Source of the DNA: a virus | Taxonomy: Duplodnaviria; Heunggongvirae; Uroviricota; Caudoviricetes | IMG/VR virus record: IMGVR_UViG_2534681736_000017 | Reading direction: 5' to 3' (one strand) | DNA length: 9,245 nucleotides | Shown here: positions 1 to 8,553 of the stretch, piece by piece | How the letters are laid out: the number at the start of each line of letters is the position of its first letter | Position numbering within the stretch: position 1 is the stretch's first letter | The notes under the pieces: model-generated | Seen by the model: only the letters and a program-made list of their open reading frames with translations | Databases searched by the model: none | Told to the model about the DNA's origin: nothing | Program-made: the position numbers and the translations under genes

Positions 1-11
1 AACTAAGATGA

Positions 12-38
12 AACAAAAAGCCCCACAATATGTGGGGC
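12..38 (-). terminator. Rho-independent terminator downstream of the small cargo ORF
   Basis: Inverted repeat GCCCCACA (20-27) / TGTGGGGC (31-38) with a 3-nt loop; on the minus strand the hairpin is followed by TTTTTGTT (complement of 12-19). Lies about 60 nt past the stop of the 98-283 ORF. Confidence 0.7.
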
Positions 39-97
39 TCCTTCGCGATTTATAGTAAAATAATCGATTCTCTAGCTGAAAAAATCTTTAAAAATTA

Positions 98-283
98 TCA
101 GCAATACGCAAGTTTTTTACCGTCATCCGGTACTAGTTTGATCACTACACCAGGATTCTTACGCTCTAACATCTGAGTTTGACTCCATGTAATACCAAAG
201 GTTTCCATTGGAGATGCATTGCCAGCAAAGAGTTCGGCGACGACTTTAGCTGCCTCAATCTCTATCTGCTCATGATGTTTCAT
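98..283 (-). CDS. Hypothetical small protein (61 aa), second gene of the cargo locus
   Basis: The ORF track gives 98-331 (77 aa). The internal ATG at 283-281 is preceded by AGGGG with about 5-nt spacing, whereas the ATG at 331 has no Shine-Dalgarno, so the shorter form MKHHEQIEIEAAKVV... is preferred. No transmembrane-like segment, so not a holin. No family recognised. Confidence 0.5.
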   Translation of the reverse strand: MKHHEQIEIEAAKVVAELFAGNASPMETFGITWSQTQMLERKNPGVVIKLVPDDGKKLAYC

Positions 284-474
284 AAAAATCCCCTTGTTCA
301 GCACTAAGCTGTAGTTGCTTCTTTGAAGCATAAAGGCAACAAAGTTTGTTACCTGAAGATGTATAAAGTAAAGCGTAGTACATTTTGTGTGTGCTTTGTG
401 TGGATCCAGATTGCATCAACTAAAAGAGGTTTTCAATACTTTTGTAATGATTCTGGAGAAATTAAGAATCTAAC

Positions 475-1017
475 TCACACTGATTGGTTAGGTAAAACGC
501 TCCTAAGCACCATTGCGCAACCACCTCGTTCGTAATCAGCAATGTACTCAAAACCACTTTCAGTATAGTATCTTATTGCCCCATCAACTGGACTAACTAA
601 AGCTATCGAATCAATAGATTCACCCTGAAGGTTCAGAAATCGTGCATATGCAGAGAAGCAATCCAAAACGATACCAAGCATCTGATGGTCTAGGTCTTCA
701 TGTGCATCATTACGTTTTTCCATCCAGCAAATATGCACCGCATTTTTCGGCTTACAGTAACACCCAAATGCAAATCCAATAGGCTCCCCACGATAATAAA
801 CAACTAGTTTTATCGGGTGTTCTTCCATCATATCCATAAACACTCGCGACTTTAGTCCGGGATCCCACCGCAGTTTATTGTTAGCCTTGAGGAACTCCAT
901 ATCTTTTAGTACCAGCTCGTCGGCATATACGAGCCCTAACGACTTATGAGGGAAGCGCCCTTTTAAATACTCTGCAACATTTTTAAATACTGCTGTTTGG
1001 AAGGCTTGAAACATCAT
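475..1017 (-). CDS. GNAT-fold-like putative acetyltransferase (180 aa), first gene after the pR'-like promoter and terminator
   Basis: Intact 180-aa ORF. By eye it fits a GNAT layout: strand-like VVYYRGEPIGFAFGCY, then HQMLGIVLDCFSAYARF (motif-A-like Q-x-x-G-x-V), then C-terminal IRYYTESGFEYI (motif-B-like aromatic-x-x-x-GF). The family assignment is recollection, not a search result. Weak SD (GGAT) before the ATG. Confidence 0.6.
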   Translation of the reverse strand: MMFQAFQTAVFKNVAEYLKGRFPHKSLGLVYADELVLKDMEFLKANNKLRWDPGLKSRVFMDMMEEHPIKLVVYYRGEPIGFAFGCYCKPKNAVHICWMEKRNDAHEDLDHQMLGIVLDCFSAYARFLNLQGESIDSIALVSPVDGAIRYYTESGFEYIADYERGGCAMVLRSVLPNQSV

Positions 1018-1095
1018 GTCGATCCAGACGAGACGAAAGTTTAAATTCTACCTACTCGCCGAATACCATTTCAATGCCACACATCTAAAATTCCG

Positions 1096-1120
1096 AAAAA
1101 AAACCCGCACATCAGCGGGT
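1096..1120 (-). terminator. tR'-like intrinsic terminator of the short late-leader transcript
   Basis: Stem ACCCGC (1103-1108) / GCGGGT (1115-1120), loop ACATCA. On the minus strand it is followed by a run of 7-8 T (complement of the A-run 1096-1102). The plus strand also has a T-rich tail, so it may act bidirectionally. Confidence 0.75.
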
Positions 1121-1168
1121 TTTCTACTTTTTATTAAAGCCGGACACACAATGCCTATCATTGAGAAA

Positions 1169-1196
1169 ATATTATCCATTTTTTTGAAAAATGCAA
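1169..1196 (-). promoter_or_regulatory. Candidate late promoter (pR'-like) immediately downstream of Q
   Basis: On the minus strand: -35 TTGCAT (1196-1191), 16-bp spacer, -10 TAATAT (1174-1169). Predicted start is about 65 nt upstream of the terminator at 1096-1120, which is the lambdoid pR'/short-RNA/tR' arrangement. Sequence-based prediction only. Confidence 0.5.
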
Positions 1197-1227
1197 GCAT
1201 CATGTCGCCATTTTCGTCGAAAATCAT

Positions 1228-1980
1228 TCATCTCGTCACTTTCCTCAATTGTGTCTCAGCATACGCTTCTTCCTGCCAGCACTTTGTAACCAGTTTATCA
1301 ATGACATCTGCATATCCTTTGTACCACTGATAATCCGTCAGGTCTGGTACCAGCTTCTGGACATGAAGCCGCGCCAGTGTGGTTGGTAAACGGCTAAACC
1401 GGTTTCCATTGCAACGCCCACAAACCTTATAAACAGGCGTGCCATGAAGCCTGGTTCTTTTTTCATCCAGGACAATACCTTTACCCTTACACCCTCTGCA
1501 CGCTGTGCTGACTTCTCCCTTACCATGACAATGCTGACACAGTTCCTTCACCCACTCTTCCTTGATAACAGATTCCCCGCTTCTGGAGTGTTTCACCACC
1601 TCGCGCAATACATCATGAAATCCAGTACCAGCACAATGCTCACAGCGAGCCTTACTTGCCGCAGACCTGGAATAATCAGCAAAGGCAAAATTCACAAGGT
1701 AAGGAATGATCTGTAGCCGGGTTTCTTCACTCAATTTGTTCAATGTCGGGTTATCCAGTGCCATCGCGTAATTGAGCAGACCTTCAATCGCAAACTGAGG
1801 ATCCTGAACACCAACTTTTGCCAGGAATAAGGCAAACCCAAGCGGTGCTTTCGACTGCACCATCCCCTGCGCAGCCATTACATCCGTAATTGTTAAACCA
1901 CCAGAGCCTGTCGCCGGTGCGTCATCGCTCAATTTTGGAGATTTTGGGGAGTAATATTTCGGTAAGGCTTCAAAGTTCAT
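1228..1980 (-). CDS. Q-like late-gene antitermination protein (250 aa) with four CxxCxGxG repeats
   Basis: Position is diagnostic: last gene of the early operon, directly upstream of the pR'-like promoter and terminator. Four Cys pairs (CEHCAGTG, CQHCHGKG, CRGCKGKG, CGRCNGNR) indicate zinc binding. Good SD (GGAG, 6-nt spacing) before the ATG at 1980. Resembles the 82-type Q family by recollection. Confidence 0.65.
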   Translation of the reverse strand: MNFEALPKYYSPKSPKLSDDAPATGSGGLTITDVMAAQGMVQSKAPLGFALFLAKVGVQDPQFAIEGLLNYAMALDNPTLNKLSEETRLQIIPYLVNFAFADYSRSAASKARCEHCAGTGFHDVLREVVKHSRSGESVIKEEWVKELCQHCHGKGEVSTACRGCKGKGIVLDEKRTRLHGTPVYKVCGRCNGNRFSRLPTTLARLHVQKLVPDLTDYQWYKGYADVIDKLVTKCWQEEAYAETQLRKVTR

Positions 1981-1993
1981 GCTCGTTCTCCAC

Positions 1994-2989
1994 TTACGCC
2001 AGTACGCCTATTGCCAGCGCACGATCGATAAAACGAAATATCAGCTCCAGCTGGGAGCCATACTTCTCTTCAAATGCCACGGTATCCGCATGCAGCTCGT
2101 CGTGATGCTTTCTGCACAAAGGCAACACAAAGAGGTCATGCGCTTTTGTACCCATTCCTCCCTGACCGTGACCTATCAGGTGGTGGGGATCATCAGCAGG
2201 CTTTCCACAACATGCACACGGCTGTGTCTTAACCCAGCGCGTGTACTTTTCATTAACCCAGCGGCGACGTTTTGGGCGTAACATAAAAGACTCCGGCGAC
2301 TCAGGATCCACTTTCAGCGCCAGCACCTTTTTCGCTTTATCCTGGATGATGCTGGTGGCAGGAACCGAAGGCACAAGGTCACTTTCCCGGGTAACAGACG
2401 GCACAACAGGCTTCGGTAATCTAAGTGCCTTACGGGCTGCACTTTCCGGTAAGGCATCCGCCAGGTCATTACGAATCAGCCACCAGCACAGTTCCGGCAT
2501 TGTCACAACGTGACTGTCATCAAAACCGAGATCCCGACGCACAACAGACAACACCCAGCGGGCACAGTTATCCGTTGCCATTGATTCCAGCCGTTCCGTG
2601 AACTGATCGCGCAGCTGGTTATCGCAGTGCCAGCACAGACGGATTGCGCCCGGAGCGTGTCGCATTGTGGTCATGTTCTCGCTGTGCCAGTCGGAATGAG
2701 GCCACTGGCAGCCTTTTTCACGAAGTAACCAGCTTTCAAGACATTCCACGCCACCAGCACGACGGATCACTGCCTCATTGCGGAACACGGCCCGAACGGC
2801 AGGATCATCCGCCAGCGGTTGTGATGCCGCCGGAACGGCACCACTGGCGAAAGATGAATAACGTTCCGGCTCAGGCTCCAGCAGGACACGCCCCTGCATA
2901 AACAGGGGCATCAGCTCTGAACCTGGCCTGAACAATACGATCCCCATACGCGGGGCAATTTCAGGAGTCAGTAGTGCTCTCACGGTCAC
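1994..2989 (-). CDS. DUF968-like protein with C-terminal HNH-like zinc-binding motif (YdfU-like), 331 aa
   Basis: C-terminal region CACCGKPADDPHHLIGHGQGG...LPLCRKHHDELH (about nt 2090-2218) has a C-x-C-C ... HH ... C ... HH pattern typical of HNH-like modules in lambdoid nin regions. GTG start at 2989 lies one nt after the KilA-N stop (TGAgGTG). Confidence 0.7.
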   Translation of the reverse strand: MTVRALLTPEIAPRMGIVLFRPGSELMPLFMQGRVLLEPEPERYSSFASGAVPAASQPLADDPAVRAVFRNEAVIRRAGGVECLESWLLREKGCQWPHSDWHSENMTTMRHAPGAIRLCWHCDNQLRDQFTERLESMATDNCARWVLSVVRRDLGFDDSHVVTMPELCWWLIRNDLADALPESAARKALRLPKPVVPSVTRESDLVPSVPATSIIQDKAKKVLALKVDPESPESFMLRPKRRRWVNEKYTRWVKTQPCACCGKPADDPHHLIGHGQGGMGTKAHDLFVLPLCRKHHDELHADTVAFEEKYGSQLELIFRFIDRALAIGVLA

Positions 2990-2990
2990 C

Positions 2991-3800
2991 TCAATGAACG
3001 GTATCGAGCAGCTTTAACAGCTCAGGGAATCGGGATTCGAAGAAATGCGGCTGCGTCTCGCGCGGATTTGCGGGACTGGTGATGTTCTTGCCGAACATGC
3101 AGCCTTTCGCTGTCAGCGACCAGAATTTTTTGATGTTGTTAATCGCAGTGCGGCTGTATCGTTCACGTTGTTCAACGATCCCCAGCTTCGCCATCTGGTG
3201 ATATGCCTGATTAGCTGTCAGGCGGATACCATACTGCTTCAGCAGTGCACTCAATGATAGCGTGGGGCGGCTTGAGCCATCAGGCGCGTCAGCAGGAGCA
3301 TCAATGGCATAGCGCGGTGCCAGATTCGGTAAGCCAACAGCCTCCTGGAGTTTCTGACAGGCACCAAGCACTGAAGAGTTAGACAGGTTTAACTCCCGGC
3401 GCATAAAGTCCAGCAGGATCACGCCAGCCTGCATCTTGTCAGCAGCCTGTCCGGATAATTTTTCCGGTGCGCTGGTTACCATATCGAAAGTACGGATCAC
3501 CTTCAGATGGAATGACGGGCTGATCCACATTGCATAGGCATACACCAGTTCCTTGCAGACATACGTTCCCCGTTCATTTCCCCCATGAATCACACTCACC
3601 GGGTCAACACCCAAATTCTGGGTGTTGGTCAATTCATGAACAAGCTCAACAGTTTGTTGGCTGGAAAGAAACTTTCCCGGCTCCTTGGTTCTGGCATTTG
3701 CACCAGATGCTACTGCTGCGCGATGCAGATCGTTCAGGCTGTAACGCCCATAAGCATCACGACGAACTTCAATACCATCAATGACCATCAGATTATTCAT
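2991..3800 (-). CDS. KilA-N domain protein (putative antirepressor or regulatory protein), 269 aa
   Basis: The N-terminal 110 aa carry the KilA-N-type pattern (GRYSLNDLHRAA ... GTYVCKELVYAYAMWISPSFHLKVIRTFD). SD GAGGAG lies upstream of the ATG at 3800. The C-terminal half is unassigned. Confidence 0.7.
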   Translation of the reverse strand: MNNLMVIDGIEVRRDAYGRYSLNDLHRAAVASGANARTKEPGKFLSSQQTVELVHELTNTQNLGVDPVSVIHGGNERGTYVCKELVYAYAMWISPSFHLKVIRTFDMVTSAPEKLSGQAADKMQAGVILLDFMRRELNLSNSSVLGACQKLQEAVGLPNLAPRYAIDAPADAPDGSSRPTLSLSALLKQYGIRLTANQAYHQMAKLGIVEQRERYSRTAINNIKKFWSLTAKGCMFGKNITSPANPRETQPHFFESRFPELLKLLDTVH

Positions 3801-3819
3801 ACTTCGTTTCTCCTCTTAA

Positions 3820-4209
3820 TCAGGCGGCTGCACCCGCCGTTTTCTCGTACTTACTGATAGTGATCTCGACCTTCCCTTCCGGGATAACCGGTCCCCACTC
3901 CACCAGCATTCTTTTCACCTGACTGTCGTCTTCCCACACACCCGCGTGGGTCAGGGCGTCAAACAGCGCCTTGTTATAGTTGTCCAGATCGCGGATCCGG
4001 TTATCCGGAGGAAACAACACGATCTCCACTGAAGCAGGTGCCGACGTTGGTTTCGGCAGACGACGTAACTGCTCAACTATTGCTGCGCACGCCGCGCTCT
4101 GGAATTTTCGCCCCGCCGCGCTTATCAGGCTCTTACCAGCAAACGCCCCTTTGTTGGGGTGTCGCCAGTACGTGTTCACGCTGGGCGGAAAAGGCAGGAT
4201 CAGCTTCAT
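3820..4209 (-). CDS. rusA: RusA-family Holliday junction resolvase (129 aa)
   Basis: LPFPPSVNTYWRH near the N-terminus plus the acidic motifs RDLDNYNKALFDALTHAGVWEDDSQV match RusA by recollection. The start ATG overlaps the upstream stop (ATGA). Confidence 0.85.
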   Translation of the reverse strand: MKLILPFPPSVNTYWRHPNKGAFAGKSLISAAGRKFQSAACAAIVEQLRRLPKPTSAPASVEIVLFPPDNRIRDLDNYNKALFDALTHAGVWEDDSQVKRMLVEWGPVIPEGKVEITISKYEKTAGAAA

Positions 4210-4532
4210 ACTTTCAGGTCCCTCTCATGTAACCAGTGGGTTGCACGCAGCCTTGCGTTTTCCTCACCGGCAAGCAGTGCGCGGATAATCCCGACCGCCT
4301 CGCTGTCGTCGTCCTTCACCGCGATATGAAGCGTTATCCCCCGGGCCACGCCACGCTTTATCGTGATGACGCCTTTTTTCTCCAGTGCGCGAAGATGCTC
4401 CACCGCTGCATTCACTGAACGGTATCCCAGCATGGTTGCCACCTCCTGATTGGTTGGCGGGAAGCCACGTTCTTTCTGATAAGAAATCAGCATATCCAGC
4501 ACCTGCTGCTGGCATTGAGTTAACGTCGTCAT
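4206..4532 (-). CDS. LexA DNA-binding-domain-only protein (108 aa), lacking the S24 peptidase domain
   Basis: Residues 3-70 (LTQCQQQVLDMLISYQKERGFPPTNQEVATMLGYRSVNAAVEHLRALEKKGVITIKRGVARGITL) align position by position with the E. coli LexA N-terminal winged-helix domain as I recall it (LTARQQEVFDLI...[36 protein letters not shown]...SRGIRL). Only about 35 residues follow, with no Ser/Lys dyad. ATGA overlaps at both ends. Confidence 0.8.
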   Translation of the reverse strand: MTTLTQCQQQVLDMLISYQKERGFPPTNQEVATMLGYRSVNAAVEHLRALEKKGVITIKRGVARGITLHIAVKDDDSEAVGIIRALLAGEENARLRATHWLHERDLKV

Positions 4533-5182
4533 GCCGCCATCTCCCTGACCAGTTTTTCTGCCTGCTGGCGAACCTGCGCCAGAAAGGCCTCACCACATGC
4601 CTCAAGTTCATAGCGCCCGATGTAGCTGATTGCCGGTCCCTTCCAGGTCTTGTCGAAAACAGCAATAGCACCAGCGAAGAAAGCGCCTGTCGGCACCTGC
4701 TTCTCATCCTTCGGGATAAACCAGGCAGGCAGTTCAAAACCAATACGCCCGCGAATAAAAGCAATATGATCTGCATCTTCCGGCCACCACACTTCGCTGG
4801 TGGCAGCTTTGATCAGGAAAACATAGCGCCCGCCTTTATCACGCATGGCACTGGCATGCTTCATGATGTAACGCATGCCGGTGATGTATTGCCCCTCATG
4901 CTGACTGGCGCGGCTGTATGGGGGATTACCAAAGGCAGCACCTTTAAGCTCCGCAAGACGTTCTGACCAGTCATGCGCCAGCGCGTTGTCTTCCGCAGTG
5001 TAATAAGCGGCACATTTGGCGTTATCACCGTCAGTGAACAGATCCAGAACAAACGGGCCAAACAGGGTGTTAATTCCCCAGAAAATGTTGTCCGGCGTGC
5101 GCCACTGATCGCCCACTTCCTTCAGTTCATGGGCTGGTTTGTTCCGCAGCTCCACCAGCGCCTGGCAATATTTATTACTCAT
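4529..5182 (-). CDS. Phage Dam-type N6-adenine DNA methyltransferase (217 aa from ATG at 5182)
   Basis: NPPY catalytic motif (FGNPPYS) is encoded at about 4916-4927. The ORF track extends to a GTG at 5215, but the ATG at 5182 has a GGGGG SD and overlaps the upstream stop as TAATG, so 5182 is preferred. Target specificity is unknown. Confidence 0.8.
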   Translation of the reverse strand: MSNKYCQALVELRNKPAHELKEVGDQWRTPDNIFWGINTLFGPFVLDLFTDGDNAKCAAYYTAEDNALAHDWSERLAELKGAAFGNPPYSRASQHEGQYITGMRYIMKHASAMRDKGGRYVFLIKAATSEVWWPEDADHIAFIRGRIGFELPAWFIPKDEKQVPTGAFFAGAIAVFDKTWKGPAISYIGRYELEACGEAFLAQVRQQAEKLVREMAA

Positions 5183-5670
5183 TAAGCCCCCACGTAATTC
5201 CCTGACAGATACCACTCTTCACCCGATACAGCGCGCTTGCTGCTTTTCCGTAAGCACCGCTCACAACGCGCCAGAAAATTGTTTCGTTCTGGCTGGGAGT
5301 GGCTTTCACGGAATGCCGCCATCCACACCGTTGCAGCACGACGGTATAAGCCCCTGGACTCCAGTTCTTCAGCCTGGCGGGTCAGGCACAAAATCACCCG
5401 GGGATCGTTAGTGCCGACATAGAAATTGCGCACAGGTCTGGTTTCACGAACTGGTTGTGGTTCCGGCTCCTGCGCTCTCTCAGTCAGGCGCGGGAAATGT
5501 CTGCGTGTATCCCCTTCACAACGGTGAGCCACACGCCCACTCTGACGTAACTTGCTTGCAGACTGCAGAACGCGCTGCCGTGAGTAACCTGCAAAAGCAT
5601 CCGCAATGTCTCCGGAAGTACAGCCCGGATGGGCTTCAATGAATTTCTGAACGTCATTCAAAAGACTCAT
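5182..5670 (-). CDS. PerC/ANR-family-like transcriptional regulator with an N-terminal extension (162 aa from ATG at 5670)
   Basis: LTRQAEELESRGLYRRAATVWMAAF matches the PerC-type signature (AE-LE--G--RRAA--W) by recollection. ATG at 5670 is preceded by GGGGGTGA; the ORF track starts at a GTG at 5676. Confidence 0.6.
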   Translation of the reverse strand: MSLLNDVQKFIEAHPGCTSGDIADAFAGYSRQRVLQSASKLRQSGRVAHRCEGDTRRHFPRLTERAQEPEPQPVRETRPVRNFYVGTNDPRVILCLTRQAEELESRGLYRRAATVWMAAFRESHSQPERNNFLARCERCLRKSSKRAVSGEEWYLSGNYVGA

Positions 5671-5672
5671 GC

Positions 5673-6614
5673 TCACCCCCTGAATCCTGCCGGGATCTGG
5701 CTGTAGTCCACGTTGTCGTAACTGGCTTTGAAGTACGGGTCCTCGCGTTTTTCGGTGTACGTGCTGACGGACGGCGATAAGCGCAGGGAAAGCTCATCCC
5801 ATTTTTCCCGCAGCTTCGACGGGCTGAGCACGTTACGGCACCAGAACGGATCGCGACTGACGCGGCTGTACATCTCGCAGATTTGTTTATGAGTACGACC
5901 ATCCTGCACACACATCAGGCGAATTTCGTTTGCCCAGGCTGTCCAGTTCGGTTCTTTGGGACGAACCACCTCGCCGTCACATTCGGCGGCATGCTCGTAC
6001 AGGGCGATGATTTTTTTCCAGAGCCACTGTGCACAGGTCAAATCATCCTGCGTCCCCCACTGGCGCTTTTTAGGGCTGAATACAACCGCATCAGGATGGC
6101 GAGTTAAAAAATCCTGTTCATCCGTCTGCGTGTCCGGTTGCGAAGCGTCCGGACGAGAAGGTTTTTTATCTGACGGATCATGTTTTGATTTTACTGACGG
6201 ATCCCCGCCAGATTCTGACGGGTGAAAACCCGCTTTTTTGCCAGATTTCGACGCATCAAATTTTGACGGGTCAGATTTTGATGCGTCAGATTTTGACGGG
6301 TCAGAATCTGACAGTTGAGAAAATGCCGCTGCCTGAAGCTTCGCAACGTTAAGCTGATAAACATTCGACGCATTGCGGTTACCCTGGCGACGCGCCTTAC
6401 GCGTTAACCAGCCTTCTGCTTCCAGCCGTGCGATAGCCGTTCTGACGGTGCTCATCCCCGCGCCAATCTGGCGGGCAATGGTTTCAATTGATGGCCAGCA
6501 CACACCTTCGTCATTACTGAAATCAGCCAGGCGGGCCATAATTGCCACGCTGGATAACTTCATGCCTGACGCAGCGCAACCATCCCATACATAGCCGGTT
6601 AATTTAGTGCTCAT
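5673..6614 (-). CDS. Replication initiator (O-like): N-terminal wHTH, repeat-encoded acidic/Ser-rich linker, C-terminal domain; 313 aa
   Basis: N-terminus (CWPSIETIARQIGAGMSTVRTAIARLEAEGWLTRK) is a winged-HTH of the kind seen in phage replication initiators. The central linker DPSKSDASKSDPSKFDASKS is encoded by tandem DNA iterons. SD GAGG with 6-nt spacing precedes the ATG at 6614. Confidence 0.7.
   Translation of the reverse strand: MSTKLTGYVWDGCAASGMKLSSVAIMARLADFSNDEGVCWPSIETIARQIGAGMSTVRTAIARLEAEGWLTRKARRQGNRNASNVYQLNVAKLQAAAFSQLSDSDPSKSDASKSDPSKFDASKSGKKAGFHPSESGGDPSVKSKHDPSDKKPSRPDASQPDTQTDEQDFLTRHPDAVVFSPKKRQWGTQDDLTCAQWLWKKIIALYEHAAECDGEVVRPKEPNWTAWANEIRLMCVQDGRTHKQICEMYSRVSRDPFWCRNVLSPSKLREKWDELSLRLSPSVSTYTEKREDPYFKASYDNVDYSQIPAGFRG
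6164..6313. repeat. Iteron array (about eight copies of roughly GATTYTGACGGRTCA), putative phage replication origin inside the initiator gene
   Basis: Copies begin near 6164, 6187, 6209, 6242, 6258, 6272, 6287 and 6303. The last four are contiguous at 15-bp period, for example AGATTTTGATGCGTCA, AGATTTTGACGGGTCA, GAATCTGACAG. This is analogous to the lambda ori iterons within gene O. Confidence 0.65.
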
Positions 6615-6623
6615 GACCGACCT

Positions 6624-6962
6624 CTATTTCCCTGAATTTACGACGAAACTGTTCGAGCGGGCTGAAGCACTCATGCTCATAGCCTTCGCGGAGGTAGATA
6701 ACCCGTTGTGTTTCCGGTTCCCAACGAATGACTCTGACGGGCACTCCGTAGTGATCTTTGAACCAGCGGTTAACTTGTCGCAAAGGACTGTCTCCTTTTG
6801 CCTGTTGAAATCACCCACAGCCCACTCTGCAAAGCTGTGGGTTACAATTTCCCTGTCACCTGGTACATTCACTGCATAGCAATACTCCACCTTCGCTTTT
6901 CCACCCGGTACAGGAAGTGCAATCAGTTGCGAGCGACGGTAGTGTGTTGTTAAACTGTTCAT
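6624..6962 (-). CDS. Hypothetical protein (112 aa) between the CII-like and replication genes
   Basis: Start ATG overlaps the CII-like stop (ATGA), and its stop sits immediately before the SD of the replication gene, which fits the coupled operon. No family recognised and the composition is unconvincing. A competing plus-strand ORF (6607-6879) exists. Confidence 0.4.
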
Positions 6963-7510
6963 GCGTTAGTTTCTCCACAGTCACGACACGCCACGGCGCC
7001 CGGAGCTGCACACTCGCGGGCGTCATTACTTTCTGAAATGCAAAAAATTTTGTAGACCAGTGCTGCATGCTCCTGCAGCTTCGAAATTGAGAGGTACAGC
7101 TCGTCGTTAATTGCTGTCTTCTCATGCGGTTCCACTACACCGTCTTCAATTGCTGAACGAATCTGTTTTGAATAACTGCCGATCTGTTCAATGACCTCCA
7201 GCAGGCGTTGGTTGATATCGGCGTTGTCCACATCCTCGACATCAGGAAGAGACACAAAGACGCCATTTGCAGACTGCGCCACAGCGTCAGCAATGAAGTG
7301 AGTTCCACCAGCACGTTGCAAAATCATTGCCCATCCCAGCGGGAAAATCTGATCGCCATCGGCACGAAGGCGGTTAAATAATGCGTTCTCTGTTACATCC
7401 AGCCAGTCAGCAGCTTCAGCGTACCCCCCCGGCAACGCTGCGATAGTTTTTCTGACAGCTTTCACGTACCACTCAGGCTGTTTTTCTACTTTCCAGTGAT
7501 GCTTACCCAC
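6959..7510 (-). CDS. CII-like phage regulatory protein (186-type CII family-like), 183 aa, GTG start
   Basis: [37 protein letters not shown] resembles the phage 186 CII segment (NKLNPEQPHQFTPPELWLL...LVDGFLAQ) by recollection. GTG at 7510 is preceded by AGGAGGT with 6-nt spacing and overlaps the Cro-like gene end. Confidence 0.55.
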
Positions 7511-7763
7511 GGTTCACCTCCTGTTCCTGTGGTTTAAACCCATTCTGGTTTTGGCTAGATTGAAAACGTGCCGGATAAAGAATCTGCATTTCGCTGACTT
7601 CACCCTTAAAAAAATTGGCTAAACGTTCTGCAAGCTCGATAGATGGAATCTGCTCCAGCCTCTCAATACGACTCAACGTCGCTGGATTGACTTGAACACC
7701 CGCAGCAACATGCTGCAAAGTGAAACCATGCGCCTTACGCACATTTCGTAATGGTGATTGCAT
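7503..7763 (-). CDS. Cro-like HTH (XRE-type) DNA-binding protein, 86 aa
   Basis: HTH segment FTLQHVAAGVQVNPATLSRIE. SD GGAGG lies 6 nt upstream of the ATG. It is the first gene of the rightward operon, divergent from the cI-like repressor. Confidence 0.75.
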   Translation of the reverse strand: MQSPLRNVRKAHGFTLQHVAAGVQVNPATLSRIERLEQIPSIELAERLANFFKGEVSEMQILYPARFQSSQNQNGFKPQEQEVNRG

Positions 7764-7860
7764 ACGCCCTCCAAATATTGCGCGTTATGCATGTTATTTC
7801 ACGCAATTATTTTGCGCAAGTTGATTTGCTTATCACGCAATAAAGAAATGTAATAAACGC
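7764..7860. promoter_or_regulatory. Divergent immunity control region (PR-like and PRM-like promoters with repeated operator half-sites)
   Basis: Four copies of a 7-mer CACGCAA or its complement: TTGCGCG 7778-7784, CACGCAA 7800-7806, TTGCGCA 7812-7818, CACGCAA 7834-7840. They include a 19-bp palindrome CACGCAA-TTATT-TTGCGCA (7800-7818). Candidate PR on the minus strand: -35 TTGCGC, 17-bp spacer, -10 TAACAT. Candidate PRM on the plus strand: TTGATT (7821-7826) with an AT-rich -10 near 7849-7856. Confidence 0.6.
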
Positions 7861-8553
7861 ATGAACATAGGAAACCGAGTCAGACAACTTCGCCAAGCGA
7901 AGAACATGAAAATCGCCGATCTCGCTGAAGCGATAGGAGTAGATGCGGCGAACATCTCGCGCTTAGAAACGGGTAAGCAAAAACAATTTACCGAACAAAC
8001 ACTGAGTAATATTGCCAAGAGCTTAGGTGTTGATATTGCTGATCTCTTTACCTCTGCCCACAAAAGTAATACTGTATATAAAAACAGTAATAATGAGGAT
8101 GTTGCGCAGGTGAAGGATGTGTTCCGTATTGAAATGCTGGATATCAGTGCCAGTGCGGGAAATGGCCTTATCCAGGGCGGTGATGTCATTGATGTGATTC
8201 ATGCCATCGAATACAGAACTGATAATGCTGTATCAATGTTCGGCGGACGACCAGCCAATCACATCAAAGTTATCAACGTTCGTGGGGACAGTATGTGTCC
8301 AACCATTGAGCCAGGAGATCTCATCTTCGTTGATGTCAGCATCAATCAGTTTGATGGTGATGGTATATATGTCTTTGGTTTTGATGACAAAATATACGTT
8401 AAAAGACTTCAAATGATTCCTGACAAACTGCTGGTGATTTCTGATAACCAGATTTACCGTGAATGGGGAATTACTAGCGAAAACGAACACCGATTCATGG
8501 TCTTTGGAAAGGTCTTAATCAGTCAGTCGCAAACCCTTAAGAGACATAATTAA
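7861..8553 (+). CDS. cI-like phage repressor (HTH_XRE N-terminal domain plus S24 LexA-like autopeptidase domain), 230 aa
   Basis: N-terminal HTH (MKIADLAEAIGVDAANISRLETGKQ). Candidate Ala-Gly cleavage site A99-G100 (SASAGNG), Ser nucleophile in RGDSMCP (S144) and Lys in YVKRL (K181). No SD before the ATG, so possibly leaderless like lambda cI. Confidence 0.9.
   Translation: MNIGNRVRQLRQAKNMKIADLAEAIGVDAANISRLETGKQKQFTEQTLSNIAKSLGVDIADLFTSAHKSNTVYKNSNNEDVAQVKDVFRIEMLDISASAGNGLIQGGDVIDVIHAIEYRTDNAVSMFGGRPANHIKVINVRGDSMCPTIEPGDLIFVDVSINQFDGDGIYVFGFDDKIYVKRLQMIPDKLLVISDNQIYREWGITSENEHRFMVFGKVLISQSQTLKRHN
8070..8089. promoter_or_regulatory. Near-consensus LexA (SOS) box inside the cI-like coding sequence
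   Basis: TACTGTATATAAAAACAGTA matches the E. coli LexA box consensus TACTGTATATATATACAGTA at 18 of 20 positions, with perfect CTGT-N8-ACAG. It is the only CTGT-N8-ACAG in the window. Function is unproven. Confidence 0.45.

Follow-up and report, generated by a model that had tools for sequence, protein, structure and literature searches.

A mobile two-gene cassette encoding a predicted GNAT-fold protein and a small partner behind the lambda-type late-gene switch of an SfV-like Escherichia coli prophage

Late transcription in lambda depends on the antiterminator Q, whose target cassette has the layout promoter, pause element and terminator; Q loads at the sigma-dependent pause element, a -10-like sequence of the initially transcribed region (PMC9388147). 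The late pR' promoter has constitutive activity, with a short terminated RNA, in lysogens (PMC7547250, PMC9388147), and Shiga toxin (Stx) phages are heterogeneous in the region from Q to the cargo (PMC6266700). Here we analyze a stretch of 9,245 nucleotides (nt) from a Caudoviricetes record (IMG/VR IMGVR_UViG_2534681736_000017; hereafter the window), in which a Q gene and a pR'-like promoter and terminator are followed by two genes for proteins of 180 and 61 amino acids (aa). An original prediction, made from these letters, had read the two genes as Q-controlled cargo in the position that stx genes occupy in Stx phages, silent in the lysogen and strongly expressed only upon induction. A second class of systems relevant for comparison is that of the morons, reportedly described by Juhala and Hendrix in 2000 as autonomous promoter-gene-terminator units in prophages. 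The lambda genes bor and lom are examples of these.

The overall explanation that we consider probable is that a late-gene switch of the lambda type is here combined with an autonomous two-gene moron cassette, which would act in the lysogen too. As in morons, the cassette has a putative promoter and a terminator of its own, an atypical base composition, a patchy occurrence among otherwise similar phages and a position between late-region modules. It differs from them in comprising two genes, with a regulatory region inside the unit, and its expression in the lysogen is a prediction. While the regulatory layout is known biology, the cassette represents an uncharacterized family, i.e. a previously undescribed member of the moron class. 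The coordinates of the features are collected in Table 1.

Table 1. Positions of genes and regulatory elements in the 9,245-nt window.
Feature	Position	Strand	Basis
Intrinsic terminator closing the cassette, strong, 13-bp stem and T-run	15..43	-	scan; fold z = -4.2
Gene for 61-aa partner (phrog_11292, unknown function), Shine-Dalgarno sequence AAGGGG	98..283	-	alignments
Terminator-like hairpin between the two genes, weak	334..354	-	scan
Intergenic block TTGAAA (436-431), 17 bp, CAATCT (413-408)	408..436	-	fixed in 9 diverged loci
Gene for 180-aa divergent GNAT-fold protein, predicted (phrog_11949, unknown function)	475..1017	-	
Putative cassette promoter P1, TTGAAA, 18 bp, TAGAAT, upstream of the 180-aa gene	1045..1074	-	scan and conservation
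tR'-like intrinsic terminator, stem CCCGC/GCGGG, loop 6, T8	1096..1123	-	scan, fold, conservation
-10-like sigma-dependent pause element, putative, AATGAT, followed by AGG (GGG in lambda)	1157..1162	-	inferred +1 to +6
pR'-like late promoter, TTGCAT (1196-1191), 16-bp spacer, TAATAT (1174-1169)	1169..1196	-	comparison with relatives and lambda
Q antiterminator gene, 250 aa, lambda-Q family, extra zinc-ribbon insertion	1228..1980	-	family, PHROG and PDB matches
cro-like gene	7503..7763	-	
S24-type repressor gene	7861..8553	+	first in gene order, then cro-like, cII-like and O-like genes

The two genes constitute an obligate, conserved pair, which the original prediction had not noted. Out of 47 loci with a member of the 180-aa family, 44 had the small gene downstream on the same strand, and a reverse look-up starting from the small protein found the 180-aa partner upstream. 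The three exceptions were one truncated contig and two loci with a 54-aa open reading frame (ORF) of like architecture, ending ...TAC, whose similarity (approximately 23% identity) was found by eye and missed by the hidden Markov model, so that the pairing at these two is one of position and architecture. By mechanical ORF calling the gap between the two genes ranged from 36 to 237 nt, and it was 160-237 nt when counted from the family start codon in eight copies; in the window it is 191 nt. Homologues of the 180-aa protein down to approximately 20% identity, and of its partner down to approximately 23%, are intact and full-length. This conservation bears on the notion that the two ORFs have no function, being remnants or a product of annotation in the AT-rich stretch that separates the tR'-like terminator from the lysis genes. 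Both are indeed annotated as hypothetical proteins only, neither has a family match in Pfam, NCBIfam or PADLOC, and a truncated methylase pseudogene lies just downstream. However, with intact homologues from Escherichia to Proteus, Photorhabdus, Xenorhabdus, Pragia and Aeromonas, conserved pairing, a confident fold prediction and near-invariant residues, the notion is effectively refuted, and we regard it as extremely improbable.

The cassette is also mobile. It was found between Q and the lysis genes behind a Q of the PF03589 type in E. coli and at loci L014, L039 and L041, and behind a Q of the PF06530 type in Proteus, at L016 and probably at L043, where the upstream ORF was judged Q-like by eye. 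The Pragia cassette comes after the lysis genes, and others are found within tail-gene clusters, with two further such cases (L025 and L045) recognized by reading of the flanking ORFs. In Citrobacter (L052-L054, 3301-4183; listed in 172 blocks of the collection) the cassette is situated between a host gene and the prophage integrase, and in Limnobaculum in a non-phage context. The copy of an Aeromonas P2-like prophage (L055/L056, 3302-4186) occupies the interval between gpA and ogr/portal, i.e. the gpA-portal interval known as a P2 defence hotspot (PMC9122126). A distant relative (L019/L020, 1775-4881; approximately 21% identity) adjoins umuD/umuC-like genes; both run antisense to the late operon of the phage and are flanked by a TIGR02642-type Q-like gene and by the lysis genes.

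The 180-aa protein appears to define a new, divergent GNAT-fold family. Its AlphaFold model, built from 25 sequences, reached a pLDDT of 86.8 and a pTM of 0.85 and has the GNAT order of strands and helices, namely beta1-alpha1-alpha2-beta2-4-alpha3-beta5-alpha4-beta6. Within the family alignment Y74 and G85 are invariant, and Q7, D39, E100 and P143 are conserved in at least 90% of the members. The conserved glutamate E100 on beta4 and a conserved Y150-Y151-x-x-x-G-F segment at alpha4 would, in the model, be placed where GNATs often have catalytic residues. The name GNAT-like, as given in the original prediction, is thereby supported by the predicted fold and not by sequence, as no GNAT model or solved GNAT was matched. 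The protein found no match in Pfam or NCBIfam, PDB searches by sequence, both with the protein itself and with a profile of 39 family members, returned chance matches only and no solved GNAT, and in a per-member Pfam scan two of the 39 members touched PF00583, at a non-significant E of 0.11. No PADLOC-DB v2 family matched the 180-aa or the 61-aa protein at E <= 1. Family scans of both products led to two PHROGs of 'unknown function' only, and to no core lysis or structural assignment.

The family is small: clustering at 90% identity gave 28 clusters, and among 1.84 billion proteins there are 36 representatives at 50% identity. Its members are distributed over the Enterobacterales genera Escherichia, Cronobacter, Erwinia, Proteus, Photorhabdus, Pragia, Limnobaculum and Citrobacter, and are also found in Aeromonas. 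When the 180-aa protein was compared by tblastn with 50,697 phage records, a single, near-identical record was found, and a literature search for the RefSeq accessions found nothing.

For the small partner, the reading at 98-283 was adopted, and not the longer one at 98-331 (77 aa), homologues being 54-65 aa long. No match to the 61-aa protein was found in Pfam, NCBIfam or PADLOC (one of the Pfam scans was done on the 77-aa reading). Its AlphaFold2 model, from a shallow alignment, is of low confidence (pLDDT 63), with helices at residues 2-20, 25-28 and 33-42. The helical N-terminal two-thirds carry the conserved motif LFA-x-G-x-x-PME-x-FG-x-x-W and are followed by an unstructured, low-confidence tail. 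In this tail there is always a cysteine within approximately the last 12 residues of the family sequences, usually at or next to the C-terminus, with Citrobacter and Photorhabdus as exceptions. The Citrobacter protein has lost the terminal cysteine (it ends ...LRLYAY) and keeps one 11 residues from the end.

A GNAT-fold protein encoded next to a small protein calls for comparison with the GNAT/RHH toxin-antitoxin modules, e.g. TacAT, AtaRT and KacAT. In these, the gene for the RHH/DUF1778 antitoxin comes first and overlaps or abuts the toxin gene, whereas the partner in the window is downstream, after the 191-nt gap. Membership of the type II GNAT/RHH class was ruled out on gene order, spacing and domains, as neither Pfam nor NCBIfam recognizes a domain in the partner. 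A toxin-antidote or abortive-infection (phage-exclusion) module of another kind would be compatible with the autonomous cassette favoured here; a GNAT-fold effector would then act by e.g. acylating aminoacyl-tRNA or an essential target, with the 61-aa protein as a neutralizer expressed from an internal promoter. We consider such a module, also in these details, unlikely, as there is no PADLOC match, TacT and AtaT, which are GNAT toxins, are not nearer to the 180-aa protein than dozens of ordinary GNATs, the order and spacing of the genes are unlike those of the antitoxin-first, overlapping modules, and the small protein has no recognizable DNA-binding domain. Most likely, the two proteins would act together as an acyl-transfer-type enzyme and a small regulator, inhibitor or substrate.

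The boundaries of the cassette are sharp. The window was compared with four relatives, namely the Shigella phage SfV, Ayreon, 2H10 and the Stx2k phage phiSTEC1575-Stx2k, and identity was 82-85% up to the last T of the tR'-like terminator (1096) and 32-38% after it. A blastn alignment with SfV stops at window position 1097 and restarts inside the SfV methylase gene, 165 nt beyond the window start; a segment of approximately 1.26 kb has therefore taken the place of SfV orf47 together with the initial two-thirds of the methylase gene. Accordingly, where orf47 and a DNA methylase gene follow the terminator in SfV, the window prophage has the two-gene cassette and a 5'-truncated methylase. This truncated DNA methyltransferase pseudogene, located between the terminator of the cassette and the holin gene (L002 13461-13775, beyond window position 1), is a remnant of the SfV-type orf48 methylase displaced by the cassette. 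Base composition also changes at the cassette, from 53.2% GC at 1400-7000 to 40.2% at 98-1230, with GC at third codon positions falling from 0.54-0.56 to 0.37-0.38. The AT-richness that had been taken as a sign of acquired cargo was thereby confirmed, and the SfV comparison shows which cargo, i.e. orf47 and the methylase, was replaced.

The content of this slot varies between related prophages, as the comparison suggested in the original prediction brought out. Apart from the genes in SfV, Ayreon carries a 141-aa ORF, a 67-aa ORF and a methylase, 2H10 carries cold-shock genes, and the Stx2k phage carries ORFs, three tRNAs and stx2AB, the latter approximately 2.2 kb downstream of the shared promoter-terminator module. 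The designation of the position as equivalent to that of stx hence proved literally correct. The window slot is the same genomic slot as that of the Stx2 locus of Stx-converting phages, and the Stx2k and Stx2c phages in addition share the Q-promoter-terminator module; the difference is that the Stx2 locus holds a toxin gene, while the window cargo consists of non-toxin genes with a conserved, putative promoter and a terminator of their own. The region of the Q-terminator module was matched in 922 E. coli genomes, and 98 of these contained the window cargo. Approximately 100 complete E. coli genomes have the cassette, and many of those listed are O157:H7. Neither product has a transmembrane segment, the maximum Kyte-Doolittle mean over 19 residues being 1.05 for the 180-aa and 0.76 for the 61-aa protein, which agrees with the earlier statement that these are not lysis genes. 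A lysis or structural role was rejected on these grounds and because holin, lysozyme and Rz genes were found further downstream.

Upstream of the slot, the gene described as Q-like in the original prediction encodes a Q of the lambda family, with matches to PF03589 (8e-53), to phrog_127 ('anti-termination protein Q-like', 2e-107) and to the lambda Q structures 7ubm, 4mo1 and 7ubj in PDB (1.8e-37 for 7ubm, range 1.8e-37 to 2.7e-22). It differs from lambda Q (207 aa) in its length of 250 aa and in the extra zinc-ribbon-like insertion. Out of its 250 residues, 238-245 (95-98%) are identical in the Q proteins of the four relatives, and 244 in that of phiSTEC1575-Stx2k.

The pR'-like promoter was found as predicted, with -35 TTGCAT, 16 bp and -10 TAATAT at 1196-1169. 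At 7 out of 12 consensus positions it fell under the threshold of the promoter scan and is at chance level on consensus alone; it is credible because it is conserved in the relatives and shares its register with that of lambda. Conservation in the four relatives covers both hexamers, the spacer and an AA(T/C)GAT(A/G)GG start; there, the -10 is TAAGAT or TAAAAT, followed by TTT(C/T)(C/T)C-AACGATGGG. Aligned in register, lambda pR' reads TAAATT-TGACTC-AACGATGGG and the window TAATAT-TTTCTC-AATGATAGG. The putative pause element with its AGG sits 6 nt past the -10, in the same register as AACGAT and GGG in lambda, and the relatives have exactly AACGATGGG. In lambda, the pause element is, we assume, the AACGAT at +1 to +6. 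The spacer, a candidate Q-binding region, differs in sequence from the lambda pR' spacer and is unchanged among the relatives save for a 1-nt homopolymer difference. It is 16 bp long in the window (1175-1190, including a run of seven A at 1180-1186), and 17 bp (A8 or A6TA) in all four relatives and in eight out of 11 other cassette-bearing copies.

Record ON470584 differs from window positions 1-1300 at three places, all within the promoter-terminator segment, i.e. in the length of the spacer, in the base at 1167 between -10 and +1, and by a G to T change at 1104 in the terminator stem. These could be regulatory polymorphisms or, as regards the homopolymer, sequencing errors. The record ('vB_EcoM-689R6') appears to come from a survey of phages located in clinical-isolate genomes and was not used as evidence of viability. 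Two mechanical ORFs without family matches cover the promoter-terminator segment, one of 59 aa (1048-1227, minus strand) and one of 104 aa (1016-1330, plus strand). That these are genes is very improbable, although tiny ORFs are annotated at this place in the Stx2k phage record.

The strong terminator predicted at 1096-1120, approximately 65 nt past the promoter, was likewise recovered, as a hairpin with T8 at 1123-1096. Its stem spans 1119-1104, with four further A-U pairs (to 1123), and the T8 lies at 1103-1096. The scan listed the hairpin on the plus strand only, owing to its stem-extension rule, and the minus-strand RNA folds into the hairpin. A terminator is annotated at the matching place in the SfV and Ayreon records. 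RNA initiated at approximately 1162 and ending here is predicted to be 64-67 nt long; the terminator is thus approximately 40 nt from the start and the RNA approximately 65 nt, compared with approximately 190 nt and the 194-nt 6S RNA in lambda. The layout of promoter, short RNA and terminator on which lambdoid Q proteins act, as claimed in the original prediction, is hence present and matches the described Q-dependent cassette (PMC9388147). The predicted short RNA (1096-1162, minus strand), 82-85% conserved among the relatives, consists of an A/U-rich stretch, the terminator hairpin and a U-tail. It has the general shape of StxS, an Hfq-binding small RNA (PMC7547250). An Rfam search of positions 1-1400 at a permissive threshold gave only weak, terminator-driven matches (best E 0.06, under the gathering score) and no known small RNA or leader.

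Between this terminator and the 180-aa gene the cassette has a candidate promoter, P1, which agrees with the consensus at 10 out of 12 positions and was the sole site within 1-2100 to exceed the scan threshold. Among five loci with differing upstream contexts, pairwise identity was 0.87 and 0.83 for the two hexamers and 0.41 for the 18-bp spacer and upstream flank, and such conserved hexamers around a diverged spacer are what would be expected if a promoter were under selection. In another group of cassettes the same geometry is seen in four out of five loci, with TTG(A/C)NN-18-TAT(G/C/T)CT and identities of 0.55 and 0.72 versus 0.34, and the cassettes of Proteus and Pragia/Limnobaculum have promoter-like sites of their own. 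In the intergenic block, TTGAAA is invariant and CA(A/C)(T/G)CT follows at a fixed 17 bp in nine loci whose surrounding intergenic DNA has diverged; the relative at 21% identity has TTGACC-17-TAGAAT at the same place. The block could serve the small gene as a promoter (P2) or be a regulatory site; as a promoter, it may be an alternative-sigma or activator-dependent one. A reading as a sigma-E promoter (AAC-18-TCTG) was not adopted, as the last -10 base is not conserved; the spacing presumably resembles that of the sigma-E promoters degP and rpoH P3. Together with the hairpin that follows, which is clearer and has a T-run at four other loci (L008, L012, L015 and L017), the block suggests that the small gene could be transcribed separately. 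The cassette is closed by the second terminator of the original prediction (12-38 there), found as a hairpin at 43-15 with a T-run, and a strong terminator is present at the cassette end in all eight copies for which downstream sequence was read. Altogether, eight terminator-like sites were found in 1-2100, against 1.7 +/- 1.4 in shuffles.

These signals bear on how the cassette is expressed. Cargo under strict Q control, as stx2 is, would remain silent in the lysogen, since transcripts would start at pR' and stop at tR'. The cargo does lie directly past pR' and tR' and is co-oriented with the late operon, the identical module is found ahead of stx2AB in the Stx2k phage, and several other phages also have the cassette straight after a Q gene and terminator. 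However, a conserved sigma-70-type promoter sequence is found between tR' and the 180-aa gene, a cassette terminator would be unnecessary for a simple late-operon passenger, and there are copies of the cassette that Q cannot drive, i.e. those antisense to late genes, by an integrase, in the P2 hotspot or outside prophages. Strict Q-gating is therefore rather improbable, and the prediction of silence in the lysogen with expression on induction only is the part of the original account that was not supported and is probably wrong. Because of its own putative P1 and its occurrence outside Q control, the cassette looks self-contained, and Q-boosted rather than strictly Q-gated; in the lysogen it is probably expressed.

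Under the autonomous-cassette explanation, pR' would fire constitutively, RNA polymerase would pause at the -10-like element and, without Q, transcription would end at tR' (1096-1099) to give the RNA of approximately 65 nt. In the lysogen there would be modest transcription of the cassette from P1, and possibly of the small gene from the internal block as well. After induction, Q-modified RNA polymerase would pass tR', continue through the cassette with both of its terminators and through the remnant of the methylase gene, and so reach the lysis and virion genes; this read-through would add strong late expression of the cassette on top of that from P1. Several observations weigh against parts of this account. 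The pR' hexamers are weak and the 16-bp spacer of the window is a minority variant of the 17-bp one; the case for P1 as a promoter is one of conservation; and the CAATCT of the intergenic block, in the E. coli group, makes a poor -10 for sigma-70. In the 180-aa protein the acetyl-CoA pyrophosphate-loop motif R/Q-x-x-G-x-G/A, between beta4 and alpha3, is degenerate (R102-N-D-A105-H-E107), the arginine and a small residue at position 4 being kept and the last position being a glutamate. Lastly, that the two proteins interact is something we infer.

The window comprises the early-right and late-control region of a prophage whose genes run on the minus strand. A prophage adjoining tRNA-Thr/proA in E. 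coli O157:H7 FRIK944 matches it at 100% identity, and positions 1-1300 recur at >=99% identity in 98 complete E. coli genomes. The O-like gene is followed by PerC-like, Dam methylase, LexA-like, RusA, KilA-N and DUF968/HNH genes, and then by Q. Next come the two cargo ORFs and, beyond the window, the 5'-truncated DNA methylase and the holin, lysozyme, Rz, terminase, portal, capsid and sheathed-tail genes. The organization is that of SfV, and the host prophage is an SfV-like lambdoid integrated at thrW in E. coli O157:H7. Within the O-like replication gene (5673-6614), a 15-bp unit (CAGATTTTGACGGGT) is present in 4.3 tandem copies at 6242-6305; these look like origin iterons, by analogy to the lambda origin, and are mirrored in the protein as a repeated SKSD/PSK motif. 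Candidate operators are found in the divergent region between the cro-like and S24 repressor genes (7764-7860), namely a 13-nt direct repeat with its units at 7794-7806 and 7807-7819, and a palindrome that overlaps it.

The thrW prophage of O157:H7 thus shares its Q, late-promoter and terminator module with Stx2c and Stx2k phages, which aids annotation and tells which cargo SOS-inducing antibiotics amplify. The cassette itself is absent from the PADLOC-DB v2 defence catalogue and from Pfam, and it lands repeatedly in accessory and defence hot spots of unrelated temperate phages, i.e. the Q-lysis slot, tail-gene gaps and the P2 gpA-portal interval. Cassettes with such behaviour have often proved to be defence or lysogenic-conversion systems. 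The pair would give an accessory function, such as lysogenic conversion or phage exclusion, rather than a core phage function, although an accessory or defence role is at this point a guess. Quite tentatively, the GNAT-fold protein and its Cys-tailed 61-aa partner may form an undescribed two-component system, mobile in temperate phages of Enterobacterales and Aeromonas; equally tentative candidates for what it does are a phage-exclusion or toxin-antidote module, or an acyl-transfer system with the Cys tail as substrate, carrier or active-site plug. In the latter case the enzyme would be one that has lost the canonical CoA loop. In lambdoid hosts the dose of the two-component system would be raised by Q on induction.

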